A DNA stretch of 62,297 bases, from assembly GCF_024298765.1 (NCBI RefSeq), contig NZ_CP101213.1; one strand, 5' to 3'. Made by a program: the position numbers. The stretch is from Escherichia coli. Its GTDB lineage: Bacteria > Pseudomonadota > Gammaproteobacteria > Enterobacterales > Enterobacteriaceae. Shown piece by piece: positions 24,001 to 27,000 of the stretch (position 1 is the stretch's first letter; each line of letters starts with the position of its first letter).

Positions 24001-27000
24001 CGCGCTTAACGGGTTTTGTGTTGCCTGCATATTCCAGGACCTCATCGACAAGTAGCTGTCCTTCGTCATCTGGATCGCCAGCATGAATAATTTCGGTCAC
24101 ATCGGCACGCCTGATAAGCTCAATAATCGTTTTAACTTGTTTTGCGGCGCTTTCTACTGGCTGGTATTTTACGGGATAAAGACGCAAAGGGAGTGTTTCA
24201 ATCTTCCACTCTTTGTATTCAGGATTATAGTTTTCGGGGGGCTGTGATTCGATAATATGACCAAAACAGTTAGTCACAATAGTATTATCACTTTCAAACC
24301 AGCCATCATGACGGGTAAAATTGCCACCAAGCGCCTTAACAATATCATTCGCTACTGCGGGTTTTTCTGCGATAAAAAGTTTCATTTTGTTATCCTTTAC
24401 ATTGAATTAATCTTTTGGCACAACGGATAGCACGTTCTTCTGATACTGCCTGTTGCCAGTTATCTTCACTTACTGGATGTCTGAATCTGCGTTCACAGCC
24501 ATTAAAAGCAAAAATCCCCTCACGGTTAAGTATATTAGTTGCAATATCCTGGTCTTTAATTCTCAAAAAGGCTGTTACGGCAAAACCAGAATACGAAGAA
24601 ATTTTTGAAATGATGCATTCATCAGCTTTTATTAACGCGGCAAAAGGAACTATCTTTTGATGACCACACGAAATCAGAGGGAGTGTGTGAATATCATAAT
24701 AAGCTATTGAATGACAATCCATGCGGGTATCATCAATAGCTGCCAGCCAGAATTGGATTGGCCCCTATATTTCCATACACTTTTTATCACTTAACCCATT
24801 ACTGGTTCGCCGCCGCAGATATTCCCGTGGCGAACGATACCCCAGTGCACTGTGCGGATGCCATTCGTTGTAATGTTCGAAGGCCTCCGCAAGGTTCTTT
24901 ACCGCTGTTAACCCGTCGGGTTTCGGCATGATGCTGATGTAATCGCGCTTCATCGTTTTCACGAAGCTCTCTGCCATCCCGTTGCTTTCCGGGCTACGTA
25001 CCGCCGTATGTTTAGGCTCCAGTCCTACCATTCTGGCGAACTGACGCGTCTGATAAGAACGGTAGGCTGAACCGTTGTCTGTCAGCCACTCAACGGGGGA
25101 TGTCGGCAGGCTGTTACCGAAGCGACGCTCCACGGCACCCAGCATGACGTCCTGCACGGTTTCACTGTCATATCCACCGTTACTGGCCGCCCAGTAAAGT
25201 GCCTCGCGATCGCAACAGTCCAGAGCGAACGTGACCCGCAGTTTTTCACCGTTATCACAGCTGAACTCGAAGCCGTCAGAGCACCACCGCTGGTTACTTT
25301 CTCCAACGGCCACTTTCCCTGTATGCGCCCGCTTCGATGGCGGTATTTCCGGTTTACGCTCAAGCAGCAGCGCATTCTGACGCATGATGCGGTATACGCG
25401 TTTGGCATTGATCACCGCCATGTCGTCAGTTTCTGATTGTCTGCGCAGCAGTGCCCATACCCGACGATAACCATAGGTGGGCAGATCGCCGATAACGGTA
25501 TGGATACGGGCCAGCGCGTCAGTATCATCAGGCTTGCGCTTGCACCGACGATCCTGCCAGTCCTTCGACCGACGGGCCATGGCATGCAGTTGCGCACGTG
25601 ACACCCGGAGGCAACGACTGACAAGGCTTATTCGCCATCCTCCGGCAACAAGGGCACGTGCGCTATCCACTTTTTTTGTCGGCCATATTCAACGGCTTCT
25701 TTTAGCAGCTCGTTTTCCATGGTTTTCTTGCCCAACAGGCGCTGCAGCTCTTTAATTTGCTTCATCGCAGATGCCAGCTCCGACGCGGGCACAACCTGTT
25801 CTCCTGCGGCAACGGCTGTAAGGCTGCCTTCCTGATACTGCTTACGCCACAGGAACAGCTGACTGGCAGCAACGCCATGCCGACGGGCGACCAGCGACAC
25901 GGTCATTCCGGGCTCAAAACTCTGCTGAACAATGGCGATTTTTTCCTGAACACTTCGCCGTCTGCGCTTCTCTGGACCTAAAACATCAATCATTCGGACT
26001 CCAACGACTAGTCTAAAAACTAGTATTAAGACTATCACTAACTTAAGTGATTCCAACTGTCTGGAGATTCAGGGGGCCAGTCTAAGAATCCTGTCTGGTC
26101 TTTTATTTTTCTGCTAATATCTGAATCTGAAACACCAGGATTTAATAAATATCCACCATAACAGACATGGAAGGGGTGAGCAGATTCATCAATATCAGGA
26201 AGTTCTTTTACCGGATTTTCTTTCCAGTCCTTCAGAACACCGAATTCAAGAGCATCCAGCAAAAACTTTCGTTCAAATCCATCAAGCAATGCATATTGCA
26301 TGTTAAACCTCTCAAAGAAGCTCTGATTTGTTGACCTCATGGTGAACCAGTTCACCATTGCGTAAGACAAACAGGTAAGAAAACTTTCTTTCCTTATCTT
26401 TCAGTCAGTTTTTGTATTCAGAAAGAATAAACACCCAGTCATCGGTGCTGTAATGAGATGCGATGACTCATTATCTTTTTAGTGATGAGTTGATTATTTT
26501 TAAAATATGCCTGCCTTTAATTAGCATGTTTCTGGAAACAGCCTGATTACGAATACCTCTCATCTGGTCAAACTGATAGGTTAAATCATGTTCTTTTCGT
26601 GAAAGTCCAAGAGTGGCTCTTTCATTATCCATCAGGACTGAAATTGCAATATATTCTCCAGATGCACACCAGTCTGCATAACTGGCAACGCAATGTTCCA
26701 TCTCCTGACCTTCCTGACACAGAGCATCAAATGTAATTAATTCATTTACACCGTTATCAACTTTCTGCCAGTTTATCCCAGTTCCTTTCCATTTTGGGAT
26801 TACGGGAATAACGTTATTCTTCACTTGTCGCGTCCATTCATCAGATAGTCTCCAGAAAGAAGGCCACTCCTGGTTTTTATGAATTAACCGTTCTTCTGCT
26901 AACAACCAGTCAATTGCATGACACAACTGATTCGTTTCCATTTCCCAGCGTGATGTTTGCCTGGATTCAGTATTACGGTCATAAAAGCCAATGTTTTTAA

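Follow-up and report, generated by a model that had tools for sequence, protein, structure and literature searches.

Insertion of an IS2-group element of the ISEc36/ISEc27 type into a conserved gene beside topB on an IncI2 mcr-1.1 plasmid of Escherichia coli

Results

The element and its ends

The DNA analysed here (hereafter the window; 62,297 nucleotides, E. coli contig NZ_CP101213.1) represents an entire circular plasmid of the IncI2 group, opened at repA (1-1029). A complete insertion sequence (IS), present as a single copy within the window, lies inside a gene of 191 codons immediately upstream of topB (Table 1), and the genes of the IS are oriented in the same direction as the disrupted gene, topB and hha, all on the minus strand.

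Table 1. Coordinates of the insertion sequence, the interrupted gene and the neighbouring features in the window
Feature	Coordinates	Strand	Remarks
topB, plasmid type IA DNA topoisomerase, 721 aa	22220..24385	-	Toprim, Topoisom_bac and Toprim_Crpt domains
3' fragment of the disrupted gene, W73-G191 plus stop	24390..24753	-	Stop 4 nt before the topB ATG
Target-site duplication AGAAT, IRR side	24749..24753	.	Single AGAAT in the empty site of IS-free plasmids
Insertion sequence, IS3 family, IS2 group, complete, 1331 bp	24754..26084	-	Length and full-length copy matches
IRR (right terminal inverted repeat)	24754..24794	-	Ends ...GGGGCCAATCCA
orfB, 301 aa, DDE integrase core	24765..25670	-	Domains rve, rve_3 and HTH_21
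orfA, 121 aa, IS2-type TnpA/InsC-like repressor	25628..25993	-	HTH_Tnp_1 domain (PF01527)
A-AAA-AAG slippery heptamer, programmed -1 frameshift	25670..25676	-	Sequence GACAAAAAAAGTGG
IS-encoded tail, 15 codons plus stop, terminating the truncated product inside IRL	26038..26084	-	
IRL (left terminal inverted repeat; upstream end relative to the disrupted gene)	26043..26084	-	Minus-strand start TAGACTGGCCCCC
5' fragment of the disrupted 191-aa gene, codons M1-F72	26085..26301	-	ATG at 26301
Target-site duplication AGAAT, IRL side	26085..26089	.	Single AGAAT in the empty site of IS-free plasmids
Palindrome ATGGTGAACCAGTTCACCAT, 20 bp, near-perfect, two 9-bp arms around a central CA	26339..26358	.	

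The initial annotation had placed a 1331-bp element between direct AGAAT repeats, and those bounds proved exact. Because the whole of the element (IS positions 1-1331) aligns to full-length copies in unrelated contexts, with identities of up to 99.9%, and three of these other copies carry 5-bp duplications of their own (ATTAC, TTTCA and GTGCC), its boundaries are set independently of the flanking DNA. The probability of a 5-base flank match by chance is about 0.001-0.002 (AGAAT, n = 99 in 62,297 bases). Imperfect inverted repeats were detected between 24762-24794 and 26043-26075 and between 24753-24765 and 26073-26085; the ends of IS2 are known to be imperfect repeats of 41/42 bp (PMC3299598).

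Both coding parts of the element are full length: orfA matched the NCBIfam IS2 TnpA model NF006928 with 262.9 bits (cutoff 229) over model positions 1-121 of 121, and orfB matched the IS2 TnpB model NF006918 with 602.3 bits (cutoff 597) over positions 1-301 of 301. With the frameshift site and the terminal inverted repeats also present, the element is intact, as had been proposed. The slippery site lies inside a run of seven A before G and leaves the reading frames unaffected; the A6G frameshift window of IS2 has been described (PMC3299598), near-identical copies of the present IS carry the PGAP annotation “programmed frameshift,” and the OrfAB fusion product of this element is likewise predicted to be made by -1 frameshifting. 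The helix-turn-helix of orfA, the DDE/rve core of orfB, the A-AAA-AAG heptamer, the terminal repeats and the 5-bp duplication together place the element in the IS3 family and the IS2 group.

The name IS2, which the element had first been given, holds for the group and for the protein models, both of whose cutoffs are passed, but not for the element itself, which is only 81.0% identical in nucleotide sequence to IS2A of K-12 (ungapped over all 1331 bp). The two share the length of 1331 bp, the orfA/orfB layout (insC/insD in K-12), the A-AAA-AAG site, the 5-bp duplication and terminal sequences (TAGACTGGCCCCCTGAATCTCCAGACA... at one end and ...GGAAATATAGGGGC.AATCCA at the other), and their proteins are identical at 116 of 121 residues for OrfA (InsC) and 249 of 301 for OrfB. 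Isoforms of one insertion sequence, under the ISfinder rule, have about 95% nucleotide identity or more, and IS2 sensu stricto is ruled out at 81.0%, well under that threshold. A copy on pLR-28_1 labelled ISEc36 by PGAP is, in contrast, 99.92% identical (1 difference in 1331) and a chromosomal copy labelled ISEc27 is 99.47% identical (7 differences), the PGAP labels being the sole guide to the choice between these two names. In view of these identities we regard the element as an IS2-group member of the ISEc36/ISEc27 type, and for annotation it is better named an ISEc36/ISEc27-type IS than IS2. The matches to the element in E. coli genomes fall in their majority into the 80-90% identity band and are there presumably true IS2; identities of 99% or more are limited to 27 records. 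ISEc36 has been described in the literature (PMC4764695) and is known as an IS3-family element of Enterobacterales found beside blaIMI and mcr-10.

The disrupted gene

The empty site was rebuilt from 24200-24753 and 26090-26480, leaving out the IS and one copy of AGAAT. The resulting 945-bp sequence agrees at 945/945 bases (100%) with many IncI2 plasmids of about 60 kb and, likewise in full, with E. coli RefSeq plasmids. The flanking reading frames rejoin in frame on this excision, as the initial annotation had reported, into a single ORF of 576 nt (24390-24753 plus 26090-26301) encoding 191 aa. The same site in pMRY15-131_2 and pAH81-39 is occupied by one 576-bp CDS (WP_001303470.1, “hypothetical protein”), which sits between a PcfJ-domain gene (pcfJ) and a type IA topoisomerase gene.

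The length first given for the protein, about 214 aa, has to be corrected: all homologues begin MQYA, so the TTG at 26370 is not the start, and translation is taken from the ATG at 26301 (the protein begins MQYAL), with GAGAGG just before it. Between the stop codon and the topB ATG lie just the 4 nt CAAA, and the ribosome-binding site of topB is AAAGGA; the adjacency to topB in translation, claimed from the outset, is thereby borne out. The arrangement in IncI2 and IncX-size plasmids is one in which the 191-aa gene would be translationally coupled to topB.

The IS entered between F72 and W73, i.e., at nt 212-216 of the gene. The truncated product is predicted to have 87 aa, 72 native and 15 IS-coded, with its stop at 26038-26040, and the junction of the 3' fragment offers neither a start codon nor a ribosome-binding site. 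Judged from its reading frames, the gene is inactivated by the insertion, and the two 110-aa ORFs of the window should be annotated as one pseudogene of WP_001303470.1.

The palindrome upstream of the gene (Table 1) is situated 38 nt before the ATG and occurs once in the window, against 0.05 expected by chance; it may be an operator. Further upstream, the longest ORF of the PcfJ-domain gene (26471-28429, 652 aa) overlaps the SNase-like nuclease gene that precedes it (28242-28757); annotated relatives of the PcfJ-domain gene use a later start, equivalent to 28147, which gives 558 aa.

The host plasmid and its IS-free relatives

The window without the 1336-bp insert measures 60,961 bp, which is exactly the length of pAH81-39 (NZ_MN232186.1). 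Outside the shufflon, one stretch of 29,338 bases contains a single mismatch between the two and another of 29,744 bases contains 3 mismatches and 2 gaps. Several IncI2 mcr-1.1 plasmids match the window without any difference over all 24,753 bases left of the IS. MCR-1, PAP2 and RepA were identified in the window by model matches, and the RepA match, together with the near-identity to pAH81-39, makes the plasmid a member of IncI2, a group recognised by its replicon together with a MOBP relaxase, a VirB-type T4SS, a type IV pilus and a shufflon; pAH81-39 and pMRY15-131_2 are typed IncI2/MOBP/MPF_T (by MOB-suite for pAH81-39). These two IS-free mcr-1.1 plasmids have essentially the same backbone, base for base, and share with the window the gene context mobC-nikB-mcr-1-pap2-...-hha-topB-(191 aa)-pcfJ (PMC13431907), and they differ from it in lacking the 1336-bp insert and in the arrangement of their shufflons.

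A probe of 411 bp across the IRR junction found no record at 80% coverage or more in PLSDB (72,556 plasmids), and none at that coverage among 5,426 complete E. coli genomes (RefSeq). Since the element is intact, its AGAAT duplication is perfect, a near-identical IS-free plasmid exists in pAH81-39 and the junction is absent from both of these collections, we consider the insertion private to the window sequence and recent, in line with the initial annotation; PLSDB and the complete E. coli genomes of RefSeq are not exhaustive, and the same insertion may exist in other records.

The protein family

Searches for the function of the split gene, made with the single sequence and with two profiles, gave no match for the 191-aa protein in Pfam, NCBIfam, PADLOC or the sequences of the PDB, and only a non-significant match in PHROGs. 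Its predicted fold is confident (pLDDT 90) and has no similar solved structure among PDB entries. A first search yielded 59 relatives, from Enterobacterales, and a profile search of 1.84 billion representatives yielded 259 clusters at E <= 0.001 (155 at E <= 1e-10), which puts the size of the family at no fewer than 259 clusters at 50% identity. Nearly all members are stand-alone proteins of about 180-200 aa. Among 107 diverse members, Pfam matches were limited to four different families, each in one member, and a profile built from these 107 matched no PDB entry; E19 and R148 are invariant in them and Q2, Y48, G49 and W170 nearly so.

By tblastn the protein was found in 1200 PLSDB plasmids, 1183 of which (~98.6%) have at least 80% of it covered in one place. 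IncI2 plasmids encode it at about 100% identity, those of about 33 kb (IncX4-size) at about 94%, and those from Vibrio and Aeromonas at 28-35%. Two Cys/His clusters (HVCYGG and SCGHQK) had been pointed out at first, and they proved not to be a conserved motif: among 29 homologues, C100 is replaced by Ile or Val in 20, H45 by Tyr in 18, H102 by Tyr in 10 and C157 by Val in 20. A zinc- or metal-binding Cys/His site was accordingly rejected, as these residues are largely unconserved and the invariant ones, E19 and R148, are neither Cys nor His.

Several public sources name the 191-aa protein “DNA topoisomerase III,” though it contains no topoisomerase domain; the label has probably spread from the neighbouring gene. 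More distant relatives are found beside transfer or pilus genes, beside lytic transglycosylases or at other places within the same accessory region. An obligate pairing with topB was considered and rejected, homologues at 28-56% identity not being adjacent to that gene; because adjacency to topB is confined to the close lineage, an obligate partnership with TopB is unsupported.

Probable consequences for topB and hha

IS2 is classically polar on the genes downstream of it. By analogy, topB would lose its translational coupling to the upstream gene, and transcription of topB and hha would have to come either from internal promoters or from read-through of the IS, about 1.3 kb of RNA that is poorly translated; read-through of the largely untranslated orfB RNA would be Rho-sensitive. 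The expression of topB and hha is probably reduced, through the lost coupling and through Rho-dependent polarity.

An element of this group could in principle also supply a promoter. IS2 has a weak internal promoter, its strong promoter (Pjunc) being formed only at the circle junction (PMC3299598), and an outward -35 in the IRR can build a fusion promoter when the flank supplies a -10 box (PMC9330008). Applying the published 17-bp Pjunc spacer rule to locate the outward -35, we find TGGAAA kept in the IRR of the present element, facing outward, 16 nt from the tip. The flank reads ATTCTG, TTCTGG and TCTGGC at spacings of 16-18 nt from it, none of which resembles a -10 box, and a consensus scan showed the IRR junction to be free of promoter-like sites and the minus strand of the IS free of terminator-like ones. 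On the strength of the junction sequence, then, the insertion is predicted to create no IS-derived fusion promoter. A promoter-like site does lie inside the native 3' fragment (24717-24690; 9/12 consensus matches), from which, or from read-through of the IS, expression of topB could persist; the promoter scan as such carries no weight either way, because it returned 17 sites against 14.3 expected from shuffled sequence.

Discussion

The window is, with little room for doubt, best explained as a whole as an IncI2 mcr-1.1 plasmid of the pHNSHP45/pAH81-39 type that recently gained one insertion sequence of the ISEc36/ISEc27 type. IS2 transposes via a figure-of-eight and a minicircle, with described roles for OrfA and OrfAB (PMC3299598), and by analogy the present element would have moved by the same copy-out/paste-in minicircle pathway, duplicating 5 bp of its target (AGAAT). 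The event is a genuine and ordinary insertion of a known type of IS into a conserved, uncharacterised gene of a well-known plasmid family. Plasmids with mcr-1 commonly acquire insertion sequences, and such cases are routinely reported, among them the disruption of virB6 and of traG by IS2 (PMC8386294, PMC7782425); our search of literature and records found no description of the present insertion or of the 191-aa protein.

As for the gene that was hit, it is doubtful, and at best a tentative reading of its position and distribution, that it represents an undescribed single-domain family carried on conjugative plasmids (IncI2, IncX4-size and Vibrio pVA1-like) in which the 191-aa protein might act as a partner or regulator of topoisomerase III. 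If the protein were indeed a partner or regulator of TopB, the insertion in the window and one other would be ready-made natural knockouts. The other is found on pEC5-1 (NZ_CP016185.1), an IncI2 plasmid from chicken liver in Malaysia, in which the same gene upstream of topB carries an independent insertion; it differs from that in the window in being an IS1-family element and in lying at about nt 413-424 of the gene rather than at nt 212-216.

This independent IS1 insertion shows that disruption of the 191-aa gene is tolerated. It could also be asked whether such insertions are selected, i.e., whether the loss of the 191-aa gene, or a retuning of topB and hha, benefits the plasmid or its host. 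The second hit on pEC5-1 speaks for this, as do the frameshifted, fused, truncated or internally deleted versions of the protein that databases hold, and IS2-type elements can alter the expression of neighbouring genes (PMC9330008). The gene is nevertheless intact in about 98.6% of the complete plasmids that bear it (1183/1200), and its conservation across IncI2, IncX4 and more distant plasmids argues for purifying selection; the insertion formed no fusion promoter that could be recognised, and it is private to one sequence in the collections searched. Selection is, on balance, an improbable explanation; in all likelihood the insertion is not adaptive, and its effect on the plasmid is neutral or slightly harmful.

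A still less probable account is that the insertion is an artefact of assembly, the plasmid contig having wrongly received an IS copy that belongs at another place in the genome. Copies of insertion sequences are a classic cause of misassembly, and the exact junction occurs in no other record of the collections searched, but a complete 1331-bp element bounded precisely by a 5-bp duplication is not what a misassembly would yield, and the total length of the window equals that of the parent plasmid plus exactly 1336 bp; we therefore regard an artefact as very unlikely. That the flanking ORFs are naturally separate genes with the IS in the space between them, as the two separate 110-aa ORFs listed from the window as it stands might suggest, has virtually nothing left to recommend it, for related plasmids that lack the insert have one uninterrupted gene, hundreds of plasmids carry an annotated copy of this 576-bp gene, the two parts join in frame, and homologues with identities as low as about 20-30% align over their whole length, from the conserved MQYA N-terminus through the C-terminus.

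As a recent insertion into an intact backbone gene, the event makes the plasmid a natural, near-isogenic knockout for a conserved gene beside topB, open to direct comparison with pAH81-39.

Other features of the plasmid

[quoted passage not shown] The mcr-1.1/pap2 locus lacks ISApl1, an arrangement of the cassette referred to as “stabilised” (PMC13431907).

Compared with pAH81-39, the shufflon segments at about 29300-31240, downstream of an rci-type integrase, show rearrangement and inversion; apart from the IS, this is the sole structural difference from that plasmid. Cross-matches in the plasmid comparison revealed dispersed direct repeats of about 220-530 bp and about 95% identity in the leading/maintenance region (4641-5170, 5678-5899 and 7590-8122), and two segments of 116 bp, about 90% identical to each other, lie downstream of repA (2302-2417 and 2499-2614).
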